Assembly (NCBI RefSeq): GCF_003018235.1
Contig: NZ_CP027437.1
Reading direction: 5' to 3' (one strand)
Source: Escherichia coli
GTDB lineage: Bacteria; Pseudomonadota; Gammaproteobacteria; Enterobacterales; Enterobacteriaceae
DNA: 64,000 nt
Made by a program: the position numbers and the translations under genes. The notes beneath the pieces are model-generated. The model saw only the letters and a program-made list of their open reading frames with translations, made no database searches and was not told where the DNA came from. Every line of letters begins with the position of its first letter. Positions within the stretch are counted from its first letter, which is position 1. Of the stretch, positions 33,192 to 46,953 are shown piece after piece.

Positions 33192-34055
33192 ATGAAACAA
33201 CACCAATCGGCGGATAATTCTCAGGGCCAGCTTTACATTGTACCGACGCCAATCGGCAATCTGGCGGATATCACCCAGCGTGCGTTGGAGGTATTACAGG
33301 CCGTTGATCTGATTGCCGCCGAGGATACGCGTCACACCGGTTTATTGCTGCAACATTTTGGGATTAATGCTCGGTTGTTTGCGCTGCACGACCATAACGA
33401 ACAACAAAAAGCCGAAACGCTGCTGGCGAAGCTGCAAGAGGGGCAAAACATTGCGCTGGTTTCCGATGCCGGAACGCCGCTAATTAACGATCCTGGCTAC
33501 CATCTGGTGCGTACCTGCCGTGAAGCGGGGATTCGCGTGGTGCCGCTACCCGGGCCGTGTGCTGCTATCACTGCGTTAAGCGCCGCGGGTTTACCATCCG
33601 ATCGTTTTTGTTATGAAGGCTTTTTACCTGCCAAATCAAAAGGCCGCCGTGATGCGCTAAAAGCCATTGAAGCGGAGCCGCGCACGCTGATTTTTTATGA
33701 ATCTACCCACCGTCTGTTAGATAGCCTGGAAGATATCGTTGCGGTATTAGGCGAATCCCGCTACGTGGTTCTGGCGCGTGAGCTAACCAAAACCTGGGAA
33801 ACCATTCACGGCGCGCCCGTTGGCGAGCTGCTGGCGTGGGTAAAAGAAGATGAAAACCGTCGCAAAGGCGAAATGGTGCTGATTGTCGAAGGCCATAAAG
33901 CGCAGGAAGATGACCTGCCTGCTGATGCCCTGCGCACGCTGGCGCTGCTACAGGCAGAACTGCCGCTGAAAAAAGCGGCGGCGCTGGCCGCAGAAATTCA
34001 CGGCGTGAAAAAAAATGCGCTGTATAAGTATGCGCTGGAGCAGCAGGGAGAGTGA
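33192..34055 (+). CDS. rsmI: 16S rRNA C1402 2'-O-methyltransferase RsmI
   Basis: 287-aa ORF; tetrapyrrole-methylase-like motif [15 protein letters not shown]. Confidence 0.93.
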
Positions 34056-34158
34056 TATCTCTCCGTGGCCCCGTTTGAAGAACCCATGGGCCGCCTGCTA
34101 AACAATCAGTCTTTTTAGTGAATACCGCCGTAAATCCTCGCTCCGTGCGGACTGACCA

Positions 34159-35115
34159 TCAGGGAGCTAGTTGCGTGGTATAGTTGGCAGCGACCCAACG
34201 ATAACCCTTGCTGTTGCTTTTAACATGCCCCAGGCCAGGGAATGAGATATGGGCAGCTGCCACCCAGTAACCACCCTGAGCCGCATGTTTTAATACTCGC
34301 TCACGGGTTTTTACCGCTTGCTGTTGATCCACATCGAAATGTATCGCCACGTGAGGATCCGGCATCTGCACTGCTTTGGCATGAATAATATCACCCCACA
34401 ACACTAGCGTCTGGCCTTCACTCTCCACTGTGTACATCACGCTTCCAGGTGTATGGCCGGCCGTTGAGGTGGCCGTAATGTCTGCAAATACCGTTGCCGG
34501 TGCGATAAAGGTTTTCAGCTGACCTGCGTTGATCACTGGGCGGATGGTCTGCTCCGATTCGACAAAGGTGTGCTTCTGACTCTCTTCTACTTTCGAGGCA
34601 TTCGCCGGATTAAGCCAGAAATCCGCATCTTTCTGCTCAACGAATACCTGGGCGTTAGGGAAAGCTGGTTTGCCCTGACGGGAGATGCCACCAGAGTGGT
34701 CGGCATGAATATGCGTCAGCAGCACGGCATCAATGGTTTCAGCCGGATAGCCAGCAGCTGCCAGGTTCTCAAGCAGTTGGCCTCCATTGTTGCCAAACAG
34801 ATCGCCCGCACCGGCATCAATCAACACGCGTTGCTGACCATTATCAATAACAAATGCATTGATTGAAGTCTCCGTATGGGGTGTCAGAGAATCCTTTGCC
34901 AGTTGCTGGCGCAGTTTATCGGCAGGAATGTGGGTGAGTAATTTATCTAGCGGAATTGTCACCGTGCCGTCGGAGACGGCGGTAATACGTAGTTTGCCCA
35001 ATATCATGCGGTAATAGCCCGGTGCTTGTGTATCAGGAGGGGGCACAGGTATAGGCGTTGCTAACGCATTTACGGAGAGTACCAGTGAGGTCACCAGAGT
35101 CAGCAAAAGTTTCAT
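34159..35115 (-). CDS. Secreted metallo-beta-lactamase-fold hydrolase (function unassigned)
   Basis: 318-aa ORF; N-terminal signal peptide MKLLLTLVTSLVLSVNALA; MBL zinc motif THIHADHSGG (HxHxDH); divergent from the LysR-type gene. Confidence 0.8.
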   Translation of the reverse strand: MKLLLTLVTSLVLSVNALATPIPVPPPDTQAPGYYRMILGKLRITAVSDGTVTIPLDKLLTHIPADKLRQQLAKDSLTPHTETSINAFVIDNGQQRVLIDAGAGDLFGNNGGQLLENLAAAGYPAETIDAVLLTHIHADHSGGISRQGKPAFPNAQVFVEQKDADFWLNPANASKVEESQKHTFVESEQTIRPVINAGQLKTFIAPATVFADITATSTAGHTPGSVMYTVESEGQTLVLWGDIIHAKAVQMPDPHVAIHFDVDQQQAVKTRERVLKHAAQGGYWVAAAHISFPGLGHVKSNSKGYRWVAANYTTQLAP

Positions 35116-35196
35116 TCTATCCTCGATAAGTTCTGTTATTACAGTACGGGCACCAGTATCCTTTTGCGGATAACATCATTCAAATTGATTAATATA

Positions 35197-36132
35197 ATGA
35201 ACTCTATCAGAGAAAATGATTTAAACCGGGTCGACCTCAACCTGCTAATCGTGTTCCTGGTGCTACATCGAGAGGGGGAGCGTTTCACGTGCAGCCAACA
35301 AGTTACACTTGGGGCAGCCAGCAGTCAGTGGCGCGCTGGCACGGCTGAGAGAAATGTTTAACGACCCGTTATTTGTGCGCACGGCAAAGGGGATGGCACC
35401 GACACCACGTGCACAAGATCTGGTTACGGCACTACTGCCGGTGATGGATCAAATGCAGCAGGTGATTTTTCAAAGGCCAGTTTTTACCCCAGAACAGGAT
35501 CAGCATACGTTTCGCCTGGGGATGAGTGACTGGGTCGAACGCTGGCTGATGCCTGGAATGATGGCAGATATAGCCCAAATGGCACCCGGGATTCGCTTAC
35601 AAGTCACGGCATCCGATCCTTTCCAGGATGGCGAAAAAGTGCAACAGGATAAGGTGGACGTAGCAATCTCCGTCGTGGAGCAGGTGCCCGCCGGAGTGGA
35701 ACGAGAAGTGATCACTCAAATGGGTTTTTGTACGATGTGGCATCCGCTCCAGTTATCTATCACTTCACCGTTAACCCTTGATGTATATACTGAAACCGAC
35801 CATCTTTTGGTCTCTTATCGCGGTGCAAGCAGTAGCTCTATCGATCTGATTTTGGCTGACTGCGGGCGTGGGAAGTGCGTTACGTCACGCCAAATTTCTC
35901 ATCGTTACCGTTGATGTTGAGACAGATACCGGCTTTAGCGACCGTACCGCAGGGGCTGGCAGAAGGTTGGGTAGCCGATTATGGGTTGCAATTTGCCGAT
36001 GTCCCACTCGAGGTTCCTGCTTTTACGCTCTCTCTACTCTGGAATAAGCGGCGTAATAATGATGAGGCGCTGCGCTGGTTACTAGAGAAATTACGTGCAC
36101 GAATGCAGGGCTGGGAGATGTTTTCAGAATGA
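35197..36132 (+). pseudogene. LysR-family transcriptional regulator interrupted by two frameshifts
   Basis: Three consecutive ORFs carry the pieces of one LysR protein: HTH in frame 1 (35164..35361), substrate-binding domain in frame 2 (35309..35914), C-terminus back in frame 1 (35875..36132); the first shift coincides with a G-run at 35311-35314. Confidence 0.65.
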
Positions 36133-36384
36133 GTTTGAAAACGTAACAATGTGAACAGAAAATAAGGGCTTTCTAAATTAAATAATTCCTGTTGAATATC
36201 ATCGTTAGCGACAACATCATCCACGACTACCAGCAGATTTGCACCGATGGTGGATGTTCAGGTCACGCCAACCTGGCCATGAACCAGAAGGTTATCAATA
36301 CGGGTTAAGAGAATATTGAGTAATGTCATAGTCTTATCTCCTGTTATCCTTGTCGCCTTTCATTTTTCGTTCTTTTGGCGGCAA

Positions 36385-36413
36385 TAAAAAAGGCAGATAA
36401 TTAATTATCTGCC
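36385..36413 (-). terminator. Rho-independent terminator of the PTS/C-S lyase operon
   Basis: Hairpin ggcagataattaattatctgcc followed by a T-run on the minus strand. Confidence 0.55.
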
Positions 36414-36420
36414 CTGTGGT

Positions 36421-37593
36421 TTATGCGATTTTTTGCATCCTTTCTAATGCTTGTTCAAGCCAGTATCTTTGGGTGCCGAAGTTTAAACGTAAGTAGTTTT
36501 CACCGTTTTGCACATAATGGCTGCCATCTTCAATAATGACTCCAGCGTTGCGGGCAAAATGATTGACCCATTCGGTCGCGGAGCGTCCACTTTCACTGAC
36601 ATCAATCCATGCCAGATATGACGATTCTGGTGTCATCATTTTCCATTCAGGAAAATGCGTCTTGAGGGCATCATTAAGCCAGTGGGAGTTATTGCGTAAA
36701 TAGATATTTAATGCATCCAGCCACGGTCTTGCATGCTGATAAGCCAGTGTAATTCCCCAAACGCCAAAAATATTCGGCGAAGTGATTGAGTTCATTTCCA
36801 GTCTCTGGCGAAAACGCTGCCTCAATCCTTTATTCGGAATGACTGAGTAAGATGTTTTCAGTCCCCCTAGGTTAAAGGCTTTATTTGGTGATGTTAGCAG
36901 GACCAGATTATCGTGATCGGCACATCCGGTAGCCAGGCAACTGACAAACTCGCCTTCCAGCAGGTGCTCGGCATGGACTTCATCCACGACCAGAATGACG
37001 CCGTAACGTTTACATAAGTCCGAAACCTGGCGAATCTCATCTGCCGTCCAGATTCGCCCGGAAGGGTTATGTGGAGAGCAGAAAAACCATAGTTTAGGTT
37101 TATGAAGTTTAAGCTGATCTTCAACCAGCGAAAAATCCAGTTGATAACGGTTATCCGCAATGCTTAACGGATTTGCCAGCACTTTAACCCCCTGGCGCTC
37201 TGTTGCCATGGCAAAAGGGTCATAGACTGGCGTATTCATCATGACGCTATCGCCCGGCTGGCAGAACGCCTGAACCATATAGTGCAGCGTTGAGACAGTA
37301 CCATAGGTTAGGGTGATCCAATTCTGCTCGATACTTACGTGGTGACGATCGCGCTGGAAGCCTATCACGGCCTCATAAAACTCATTAAAGGCGTATGTGT
37401 AGCCGAAAGTTCCGTGCTCAACAATCCGTTGAAAACCGTCAATTACCGCTGGTGGCGAAGTAAAATCCATATCAGCGATCCAAAGAGGGATAAAATCTTC
37501 TGCAACCGCACCGAAGCGTGAGCAGACAAACTGATGATCCCATTTGCGGCACTTGTCGCTTTTACGCTCGATAATTCTATCGAAATCGAACAT
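36421..37593 (-). CDS. PLP-dependent C-S lyase (MalY/PatB-family class I/II aminotransferase fold)
   Basis: 390-aa ORF resembling MalY/PatB cystathionine beta-lyases (..LLTSPNKAFNLGGLK.. PLP-lysine region); clearly diverged from K-12 MalY, so a paralogue. Confidence 0.85.
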   Translation of the reverse strand: MFDFDRIIERKSDKCRKWDHQFVCSRFGAVAEDFIPLWIADMDFTSPPAVIDGFQRIVEHGTFGYTYAFNEFYEAVIGFQRDRHHVSIEQNWITLTYGTVSTLHYMVQAFCQPGDSVMMNTPVYDPFAMATERQGVKVLANPLSIADNRYQLDFSLVEDQLKLHKPKLWFFCSPHNPSGRIWTADEIRQVSDLCKRYGVILVVDEVHAEHLLEGEFVSCLATGCADHDNLVLLTSPNKAFNLGGLKTSYSVIPNKGLRQRFRQRLEMNSITSPNIFGVWGITLAYQHARPWLDALNIYLRNNSHWLNDALKTHFPEWKMMTPESSYLAWIDVSESGRSATEWVNHFARNAGVIIEDGSHYVQNGENYLRLNFGTQRYWLEQALERMQKIA

Positions 37594-37605
37594 TTTTAAC
37601 TCCTG

Positions 37606-39177
37606 TTAAATTAAAGCTTCAAGGCCCGTTTTCACACTTTGAACTTGCGGGCCAATAATTACCTGCACACTGTGAGCATCCAGTACAACCACCGACAGGG
37701 CACCTGCATTCTTTAACGTGGCTTGATCCACTTTCGACATATCTTTCACCACCAAACGTAAACGAGTAATACAGTTATCCAGTGAATCAATATTTTCTTT
37801 TCCGCCAAGCGCACTCAAAATCACAGCATGATCATATTTAGATTTGCCTCGTGCTTTTGAATTTGCTGCAACAGCCTGTGCTGCATCCTCAGATGAGTCT
37901 TCACGGCCTGGGGTTTTAATATCATGCTTAAGGATGTACCAACGGAAAACAAAGAAATAAATAGCAAACCAAACAATACCCACCGGAAGTATTAAATACC
38001 ATTTAGTAGAAGTACCCTGCATGATACCAAATATTAATAAATCCAAAATCCCGCCATCAGTATTACCGATAGTCACGCCCAGGATTGCCATAACCATTAA
38101 GGCCAGACCGGACATGATAATATGGAATATATACAACGCAGGAGCAATAAAGAGGAATAAAAACTCAATTGGTTCAGAAATGCCAGTAACAACAGATACT
38201 AATACGCCTGAAAGCAGTAAGCCTTTAATTACAGGACGATTTTCTGGTTTGGCTGTACGATAAATTGCGTAAGCCACAGCAGGCAAACCAAACATAAAGG
38301 TTGGCATAAAGCCTTGGGATAAAAACGCAGTAACATGTGGGCTAAAGGGAAGACCGGCTTTTAATTCTGCATAGAAAATATTGAGTGCTCCGGCAACTTC
38401 ATGACCGTCGACAATTTCTGTACCGCCCGCAGGTGTGAAGCGAACCATTGCAAGCAAGATATGATGTAGCCCGAAAGGCTTAAGCAAAAGCACACCAACG
38501 CCATAAAGGAACGGGCCGAATACGCTGGTACTTTGAATAATGTGGCCAATACCAGCAATACCCATTGCAACATAGGTCCAGAGCAAAGGAATGGCCTGGC
38601 CTACTAATGATAATGTTAGCGAAGTGATGATGGGTACGAAGCGGATACCGCTAAAGAAGGCAAAGGCATCATGTAATACAGTATCCTGAAAACGTTCGTG
38701 GAGAAAATAAGTTATTACCCCGGCGATGATGCCACCTAAAACGCCCATCTCTAAGGTTTGAATACCTAATACTACAGATTGACCAACCTGCTTCATCGTG
38801 GCAGCATCGGCAAGTTGATGGGTAACAGTGAGATAATAATTAATACTCATGTTCATTAGCATATAGCCAACAAAACCTGAATATGCGCCTACTGCTTTAT
38901 TTCTCTTTGCCATTCCTAATGGAATTGCAATAGCAAACATAACAGGTAGATAAGTAAATGCAAAGCCACCTACCATTGCAATAAAGCCAAATGTAAGTTG
39001 GGTAAGCTCACCACCTAAAAAGGGGAAGTTATTAATTGTTGAGGGGCTGGTTACTGAACTACCTATACCTAACAGAAGTCCCATAAAAGCGAGTAATGAT
39101 ACTGGGAACATAAATGTTTTCCCTAAACTTTGGAAAAACTCCCAGACCCGTGACTTTATAGACTTTTCCTGTGTCAT
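37606..39177 (-). CDS. PTS glucose-family EIICB component (MalX/PtsG-like)
   Basis: 523-aa ORF; multi-pass EIIC domain plus C-terminal EIIB domain with phosphorylation-site motif NCITRLRL; co-directional with and 13 bp upstream of the C-S lyase gene. Confidence 0.85.
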   Translation of the reverse strand: MTQEKSIKSRVWEFFQSLGKTFMFPVSLLAFMGLLLGIGSSVTSPSTINNFPFLGGELTQLTFGFIAMVGGFAFTYLPVMFAIAIPLGMAKRNKAVGAYSGFVGYMLMNMSINYYLTVTHQLADAATMKQVGQSVVLGIQTLEMGVLGGIIAGVITYFLHERFQDTVLHDAFAFFSGIRFVPIITSLTLSLVGQAIPLLWTYVAMGIAGIGHIIQSTSVFGPFLYGVGVLLLKPFGLHHILLAMVRFTPAGGTEIVDGHEVAGALNIFYAELKAGLPFSPHVTAFLSQGFMPTFMFGLPAVAYAIYRTAKPENRPVIKGLLLSGVLVSVVTGISEPIEFLFLFIAPALYIFHIIMSGLALMVMAILGVTIGNTDGGILDLLIFGIMQGTSTKWYLILPVGIVWFAIYFFVFRWYILKHDIKTPGREDSSEDAAQAVAANSKARGKSKYDHAVILSALGGKENIDSLDNCITRLRLVVKDMSKVDQATLKNAGALSVVVLDAHSVQVIIGPQVQSVKTGLEALI

Positions 39178-39314
39178 TTAATAGACTCCTTGATTTTTAT
39201 AAGCATAGTTTCAAGGTCATGAAAAAGTAATCATGACCTTTTATATTTGTGAGGTAAGTTGTTTTTTATTGTCTGAATACAGCTGCTAAGAAACTGTTAT
39301 TCACATATTTTTAA

Positions 39315-40184
<870 letters not shown>

Positions 40185-41379: not shown

Positions 41380-41500
41380 TCGCTTTCGCTTACCTTTCGT
41401 TTCATTTCACTTGGTGATGTCTTTCGTTGATTAAAATCTATAGAAAAGAAACTGAAAGTTCAATGGAGAAAAAAGAAATAAAACGAAATTTGTGATCATT
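41380..41500. promoter_or_regulatory. agaS promoter region with AgaR-type operator repeats
   Basis: Clustered CTTTCGTTTC/GAAACGAAA-like half-sites (ctttcgcttacctttcgtttcatttcac, tctttcgttgat, aaaacgaaatttg), same motif family as the kbaZ-agaR spacer. Confidence 0.4.
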
Positions 41501-46705: not shown

Positions 46706-46953
46706 TTTCCTCTCCAGTTCAGATTACTGCGATATTAATCTTTCGTTTTGTTTCAGTTGATACTGCGCCATGGTGAGATAAAAATAAAACGAAAGATAAT
46801 AGTTTTCTGATCTGATTCACAAAAGAAACATAATGAAAGCCACTGAAACGAGAGTAGCTTGCGCCAATGGGTAAGGTGGGCTTGCATTTGCTTAATAGAA
46901 AGGCGTTAATAGGCAAAACGAAATGAAACGAAAGTTTTACGAAAGGACTTACT
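46706..46953. promoter_or_regulatory. Divergent kbaZ/agaR promoter region with AgaR (DeoR-type) operator repeats
   Basis: Repeated CTTTCGTTT/AAACGAAAG motifs (ctttcgttttgtttcag, aaaacgaaagataa, aacgaaatgaaacgaaagttttacgaaagg). Confidence 0.5.

Follow-up and report, generated by a model that had tools for sequence, protein, structure and literature searches.

The aga/gam regulon of Escherichia coli C and O157:H7 comprises agaR, kbaZ-agaVWEF-agaA and agaS-kbaY-agaBCDI (PMC3668189). A second described system, the malX-malY pair of E. coli K-12, is composed of a MalI-regulated enzyme IICB (EIICB) of the phosphotransferase system (PTS) and a beta-C-S lyase that is also a MalT antagonist. Relatives of both meet between rsmI and kbaY (34056-39314) in a stretch of 64,000 nucleotides of E. 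coli DNA (RefSeq assembly GCF_003018235.1, contig NZ_CP027437.1), hereafter the window. Compared with the described regulon, the window shares intact agaA, agaS and kbaY (minus strand) and, further upstream, intact agaF, agaE, agaW, agaV, kbaZ and agaR, with AgaR-like sites at the expected promoters, but it is devoid of the galactosamine (GalN) branch (agaBCD, agaI) save a 49-codon stub of agaB. The yraHIJK operon is also missing between rsmI and kbaY, and kbaY is followed by a pair of genes, here named malX'-malY', that encode an EIICB and a C-S lyase. The 5.3-kb interval is very probably a three-part mosaic produced by ordinary evolution of the locus and not by one insertion. Its parts, with the same good confidence for the reading as a whole, are a retained ancestral malX'-malY' operon, a deletion scar in agaB, and a cassette lodged in a polymorphic slot that carries a gene for a metallo-beta-lactamase (MBL)-fold hydrolase and a LysR-family regulator gene (MBL-LysR). 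For the most part, the interval is ordinary lineage variation.

Gene content was established from a listing of open reading frames (ORFs) and from NCBIfam profile scans of the window. These bear out the genes, coordinates and gene families described in an earlier sequence-only reading, as well as the replacement of the K-12 agaBCDI-yraHIJK segment, but the four-gene inventory given there was incomplete because a 5' remnant of agaB (36183-36329, minus strand, 147 nt, 96% identity to nt 13-147 of K-12 agaB) had been overlooked. This stub, with an in-frame TGA at codon 24 (36258-36260), corresponds to the partial 'PTS IIB' pseudogene that RefSeq annotates between the LysR and lyase genes in identical arrangements, and it divides the supposed island into two unrelated parts. 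A census of 5,426 complete E. coli genomes has revealed that the two parts are also distributed independently. The malX'-malY' pair was found in 30 genomes, the same number as the whole composite (malX'-malY', agaB stub and MBL-LysR), and MBL-LysR in 63. All 30 malX'-malY' carriers have MBL-LysR and, therefore, the other 33 genomes should contain MBL-LysR without malX'-malY'; two of these were inspected (L004 and L005), both with intact agaBCDI. About 30 complete E. coli genomes, most of them O145:H28, already contain the composite in annotated form, and the K-12-type block of kbaY, spacer and agaBCDI is found in 5,246 genomes of the census.

According to the sequence-only reading, the interval was one accessory island of unclear arrival. 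A single horizontally acquired island of about 5 kb, which would have replaced agaBCDI-yraHIJK in one event, agrees with the absence of the four genes from K-12, the AT-richness of the PTS/lyase segment and the rarity of the arrangement (30/5,426). However, this explanation is refuted by the independent distributions of the halves and by the agaB remnant between them, and it is given hardly any credence here. It is also opposed by the position of malX'-malY' after kbaY in many genera, with a divergence similar to that of the flanks, and by the lack of signs of mobility. Neither integrase, transposase nor insertion sequence (IS) ORFs were detected in 34056-39314 or in the RefSeq annotation of identical arrangements. 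The search at the interval borders yielded no IS remnants and no flanking direct or inverted repeats, only short repeats at chance level, in agreement with the sequence-only reading on the repeats. Comparison of the interval with plasmid and phage collections gave no copies, with plasmid matches to the agaB stub only and zero phage matches. Across Enterobacteriaceae malX'-malY' was not found in unrelated contexts, as a mobile island would be, whereas the MBL-LysR pair was found in different contexts in other genera.

The deletion junction was defined against the two MBL-LysR genomes with intact agaBCDI. The window is collinear with both from lpoA to about 50-60 bp beyond the LysR stop codon, and then jumps to nt 147 of agaB, with a loss of about 3.0 kb that includes the 3' part of agaB, agaC, agaD, agaI and 276 bp of spacer. 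At this point (36183-36192) the two alignments overlap by 10 bp, in an imperfect microhomology (TAAYTYCTGT) that is read in both parental sequences. The alignments therefore identify the loss as a single deletion at the shared microhomology. An identical agaB/LysR junction was present in all carriers inspected, including L001, L002 and L009. The ancestor of the haplotype would have had malX'-malY' followed by agaBCDI, as still found in Escherichia sp. MOD1-EC7003, and the deletion of about 3.0 kb would have left the agaB stub.

The malX'-malY' segment (36318-39333, minus strand) lies directly after kbaY. The gene malX' (37606-39177, minus strand) encodes a Glc-family PTS EIICB of 523 amino acids that matches two curated models over its full length and above their cutoffs (TIGR02004, 733 bits with a cutoff of 632; PRK10110, 723 with a cutoff of 665). 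The Cys motif of the EIIB phosphorylation site (NCITRLR) is kept, with LDNCITRLRL aligned with K-12 MalX, and an EIIA domain is missing. The gene malY' (36421-37593, minus strand) codes for a pyridoxal phosphate (PLP)-dependent C-S lyase of the PatB/MalY family (390 amino acids; TIGR04350, 364 bits with a cutoff of 340), whose best PDB match is PatB (6qp3, E=8e-80). Its PLP-lysine region is conserved, SPNKAFN being aligned with SGSKSFN of MalY, where the aligned lysine is presumably the PLP-binding Lys233. The terminator that the sequence-only reading had placed after the lyase gene is real (36390-36415, minus strand, 11-bp stem plus T run), and this intrinsic terminator is kept in MOD1-EC7003, in Salmonella enterica subsp. 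indica and in a malY' remnant described below (L007). Also confirmed was the AT-richness of the pair, with GC contents of 41.7% in malX' and 46.5% in malY' versus 54.7% in agaA-kbaY. This low GC is common to the orthologues of MOD1-EC7003, Salmonella and Kluyvera and, therefore, it is intrinsic to the malX'-malY' genes and does not point to a recent import.

Synteny beyond E. coli was analyzed by homologue and context look-ups and by a scan of species-representative genomes. The Enterobacteriaceae loci compared have a common order, agaR / kbaZ-agaVWEF-agaA-agaS-kbaY-malX'-malY', and in the species-representative scan the Enterobacteriaceae pair was always at this same locus. In MOD1-EC7003 an intact agaBCD comes after kbaY-malX'-malY', and then agaI, a fimbrial operon and rsmI; in S. 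enterica subsp. indica, kbaY-malX'-malY' precedes agaB'::agaD'-agaI' remnants and rsmI. The order kbaY-malX'-malY'-rsmI-lpoA was found in 14 species-representative loci, 13 of them with adequate flank (five Kluyvera, seven Enterobacter, Citrobacter sp. R56 and Enterobacteriaceae RIT691). Morganella and Aeromonas also keep kbaY-malX'-malY', within a different chromosomal neighbourhood. The divergence of the pair resembles that of its flanks: nucleotide identity between the window and MOD1-EC7003 is 95.5% for malX', 91.1% for malY' and 86-96% for the flanking genes, and the corresponding values against S. enterica subsp. indica are 80.2%, 78.4% and 75-87%. As a side observation, MOD1-EC7003 has six tandem units of about 115 bp between agaD and agaI (L013/L031, 13419-14028), each with a core that matches an element located between dolP and yraQ in K-12.

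Given the same site after kbaY in several genera and a flank-like divergence, the simplest reading is that, in this part of the family, kbaY-malX'-malY' looks like the ancestral state and the common E. coli (K-12) arrangement like a derived one. The sequence-only reading had itself considered that an ancestral arrangement would speak against an island, and for the PTS/lyase half such an arrangement is what synteny and divergence point to at the family level. The pair would thus be an old, vertically inherited accessory part of the aga locus that has been kept here and lost from about 99% of E. coli, which carry kbaY, 166 bp and agaBCDI in its place.

Several observations weigh against this history or complicate it. 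Only 0.55% of the complete E. coli genomes have malX'-malY', which fits descent and spread by intraspecies recombination alike. None of the E. coli genomes was found to combine malX'-malY' with intact agaBCDI, and the proposed intermediate is known from MOD1-EC7003 only. When a simple deletion was sought, the 166-bp kbaY-agaB spacer of K-12 displayed no similarity to the ends of the module and, therefore, the two states represent an allelic replacement and not a clean insertion or deletion; the module breaks off within the final codons of kbaY (39334) on one side and within the initial codons of agaB (36317) on the other. Finally, E. coli 18KM2445 and MEW point to a more complicated history, since downstream of an intact agaBCDI they carry a decayed remnant with the 3' end of malY', its terminator and agaB'::agaD' (agaB' nt 11-57 joined to agaD' nt ~467-543; L007, 8832-9212). 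Alignment of the 18KM2445 remnant with that of S. enterica subsp. indica (L017, 11213-11700), also located right after a malY' terminator, runs through an agaB::agaD junction that is apparently common to the two. This shared junction may reflect shared descent, transfer or recurrent deletion.

Two other histories were considered in view of these data. After an early loss from E. coli, the pair could have returned to its homologous site from a different Escherichia lineage or from another enterobacterium, by homologous recombination whose crossovers lay in kbaY and agaB, and the haplotype could then have spread to a few lineages. The very low and patchy distribution of malX'-malY', its low GC and the position of the breakpoints, as allelic replacement predicts, are consistent with this proposal, which is nevertheless judged unlikely because the nearest copy outside E. 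coli, that of MOD1-EC7003, is no closer to the window in the module (91-95.5%) than in the flanks (86-96%). In addition, kbaY and agaS beside the module are typical E. coli alleles (97-99%), and divergence among the E. coli alleles of malX'-malY' has already reached 2-4%, which would make any import an old one. Alternatively, a secondary insertion could have brought in the block that is common after kbaY in E. coli (166-bp spacer and agaBCDI) and overwritten malX' together with the greater part of malY'. The ancestor concerned would already have had a decayed agaBCD, like that of S. enterica subsp. indica, and the haplotype of the window would descend from a lineage spared by the insertion. 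The remnants of 18KM2445 and MEW, located after intact agaBCDI and with the junction of the S. enterica subsp. indica type, are in line with this order of events, as is the lack of relationship between the K-12 spacer and the module ends. Yet MOD1-EC7003 has an intact agaBCD directly after malY', which a decayed copy would not easily give rise to. Moreover, deletion at a microhomology may have recurred and produced the shared junction, and the remnant is present in 2/5,426 genomes only; this insertion is accordingly considered quite improbable. Retention of an ancestral malX'-malY', followed by the agaB deletion, is preferred over both histories.

The third part of the mosaic lies in the spacer that separates agaI from rsmI, two convergent genes; in E. 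coli this slot has at least five alternative contents. Besides MBL-LysR, these are the K-12-type yraHIJK operon (3,264/5,426), an empty state with a 49-bp hairpin spacer (1,808/5,426), a HTH/RelE-ParE toxin-antitoxin pair (13/5,426) and another allele of a divergent fimbrial operon (2/5,426). E. coli EC25 was examined as a further state and rejected, as it corresponds to an IS1 rearrangement. The boundaries of the slot are sharp and located at stop codons, without mobile-element genes. The MBL-LysR and toxin-antitoxin variants have in common a left frame of 66 bp (34056-34121 in the window) and a right frame of about 70 bp, unlike the empty 49-bp spacer. The alternatives are most likely exchanged by homologous recombination in the flanking core genes. 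The slot shares with other polymorphic spacers between convergent E. coli core genes the presence of alternative cargos at one site with sharp stop-codon boundaries, but in the haplotype of the window agaI itself has been deleted and the cassette adjoins the agaB stub.

The hydrolase of the cassette (34159-35115, minus strand) was assigned by PDB matches and its motif to the secreted MBL-fold family of methyl-parathion hydrolase (MPH)- and dihydrocoumarin hydrolase (DHCH)-like lactonases. It has a hydrophobic, Sec-like N-terminus and an intact HxHxDH motif, and its closest solved relatives are AncDHCH1 (PDB 5hif, E=2e-87, full length) and MPH (1p9e, E=4e-78). The MBL fold, the HxHxDH motif and the secretion signal are features shared with these enzymes and with the AidB-type acyl-homoserine lactone (AHL) lactonases. 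In contrast to the latter, the window hydrolase scores 202.6 bits with the AidB model NF047979, under the equivalog cutoff of 360, and its partner regulator is inactivated. This regulator gene (35197-36132, plus strand), divergent from the hydrolase gene, was delimited from ORF fragments and by alignment with four intact alleles of 312-314 amino acids. The frameshift mentioned in the sequence-only reading is correct, but there are two indels and not one, an additional G in the run 35274-35278 and the loss of four nucleotides (AAAA) between 35870 and 35871; read from its ATG, the gene reaches a stop at 35361, and no reading frame with intact HTH_1 plus LysR_substrate domains was found in the LysR gene of the window. 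As a conserved unit, the divergent LysR/MBL pair also appears in different genomic surroundings, in Enterobacter kobei (74% amino acid identity) and in a metagenomic enterobacterium (86%) and, therefore, the MBL-LysR half looks like an acquired cassette, the only part of the interval that behaves in this way. The slot here holds a cassette of LysR and a secreted MPH-like lactonase, whose regulator has become a pseudogene.

Concerning the borders, the variable interval starts directly after the stop codon of rsmI (33192-34055, plus strand, 864-nt allele, NF011570 629 bits), a core flank beside which lpoA (minus strand) was recognized in the ORF listing and NCBIfam scans. Alignment similarity to K-12 ends at 34048 and restarts at 39334, inside kbaY (39315-40172, minus strand, 285 amino acids, identified by NCBIfam and comparison with K-12), so that the last ~19 nt of kbaY (39315-39333) belong to the malX'-malY' haplotype. 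For rsmI (861 or 864 nt) and for agaI (756 or 768 nt), length co-varies with the state of the slot, as seen at 34048-34055 of the window, in L003 (16476-17336) and in L030 (10267-11947). In the inspected genomes with the yraHIJK-type fimbrial operon, K-12 and 18KM2445, rsmI is of the shorter length and agaI is also reduced, to 756 and 765 nt, respectively, from which it follows that insertion of the operon changed the last codons of both flanking genes. Two other rearrangements were observed around the aga genes. E. coli ECNB21-M121, a genome with the toxin-antitoxin variant of the slot, has ISKpn26 within agaD (L006, 10620-12611), and E. coli CP057879, otherwise of identical haplotype, contains Mu-like transposition genes, homologues of MuA and MuB, in place of agaR-agaE (L010, 1-3866), the result of a Mu-type prophage insertion in its aga cluster.

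A scan of the window with the AgaR-operator consensus, reportedly that of Ray & Larson 2004, gave 6 matches versus 0.14 expected. Five of them are at the promoter regions of agaS and agaR/kbaZ, grouped in 41391-41492, where two operator-like sites lie upstream of agaS, and in 46737-46937, as expected for an intact aga regulon. The spacer between kbaY and malX' (39178-39314) contains no AgaR operator with up to 3 mismatches, and no match to a sigma-70 promoter or a terminator on the sense strand. It has a stem-loop (39213-39240, minus strand) with compensatory changes at 8/9 pairs across 15 Enterobacteriaceae sequences (the window, L017, L031-L033, L035-L038, L040-L044 and L048); its sequence differs between an Escherichia/Salmonella/Kluyvera group and an Enterobacter/Citrobacter group, and the pairing is kept. 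No U tract follows on the sense strand of the stem-loop, and no Rfam family was over threshold in the interval (Termite-leu, 25.8 versus 51 bits, on the spacer hairpin). The element is likely an intercistronic or leader RNA hairpin. AgaR sites placed only at the agaS and kbaZ/agaR promoters, a spacer free of promoter and terminator matches and the strong malY' terminator lead us to propose an AgaR-controlled agaS-kbaY-malX'-malY' transcript that contains the stem-loop as an intercistronic hairpin. The malX'-malY' pair is probably co-transcribed with agaS-kbaY, by read-through from the AgaR-controlled agaS promoter to the terminator after malY'.

The pair keeps its place after kbaY, which suggests that the sugar moiety of its substrate is fed into the Aga pathway, and the aga context suggests that the substrate of MalX' is other than maltose or glucose. 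As MalX' has no EIIA domain, it would depend on EIIA-Glc for the import and phosphorylation of a free or conjugated sugar, and MalY' would carry out a PLP-dependent alpha,beta-elimination on the MalX' product. As a rather long shot, malX'-malY' could be an undescribed branch of N-acetylgalactosamine (GalNAc) catabolism, in which the EIICB imports and 6-phosphorylates an amino-acid conjugate of GalNAc or GalN and the PatB-type lyase frees GalNAc-6-P. Candidate conjugates would be GalNAc-O-Ser/Thr (the mucin core 'Tn' unit) or an S-linked analogue, and alpha,beta-elimination would yield GalNAc-6-P, pyruvate and ammonia, feeding AgaA/AgaS/KbaYZ. If true, this branch would account for the retention of the pair immediately after kbaY not only in Enterobacteriaceae but also in Morganella and Aeromonas. 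Some data argue against the GalNAc link or the shared transcript. The link is one of gene order, Hafnia has an orthologous pair (64% identity) outside any aga cluster, and Morganella has a terminator-like hairpin between kbaY and malX'. A permanent association of malX'-malY' with aga genes was discarded, since the Hafnia pair stands alone, and so was the replacement of AgaS by MalY' in Aeromonas, because agaS is located upstream in the longer Aeromonas loci. A literature search for an aga-linked MalX/MalY pair or its substrate found nothing relevant.

The structure of this genome region is ordinary, and it illustrates that an AT-rich, seemingly foreign block can be the ancestral state and the K-12 reference the derived one. 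An uncharacterised PTS EIICB/PLP-lyase pair is a conserved appendage of the GalNAc cluster in many Enterobacteriaceae. Its carriers include Shiga-toxin-producing E. coli O145:H28, Kluyvera, Enterobacter and non-enterica Salmonella subspecies, and pathway models based on K-12 omit the pair. Since agaVWEF-agaA-agaS and kbaYZ are intact, the strain of the window should grow on GalNAc, but without the GalN-specific transporter AgaBCD; carriers of the haplotype are thus predicted to have a GalNAc-positive, GalN-transporter-negative genotype.

With regard to the K-12 malX-malY system, the new pair has the same gene order, an EIICB gene and then a PatB/MalY-type lyase gene, and both pairs belong to the same NCBIfam families over cutoff, with the EIIB Cys motif and the PLP-lysine region kept. 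No malI-type LacI-family repressor gene was found among the nearby ORFs, the neighbours of malX'-malY' being kbaY and the agaB stub. The proteins differ from their K-12 counterparts, with identities of 54% for MalX' and 31% for MalY', and the locus is also different. By sequence comparison, malX'-malY' is a second pair, paralogous to malX-malY and distinct from the core malXY genes, which is placed inside the aga cluster after kbaY.

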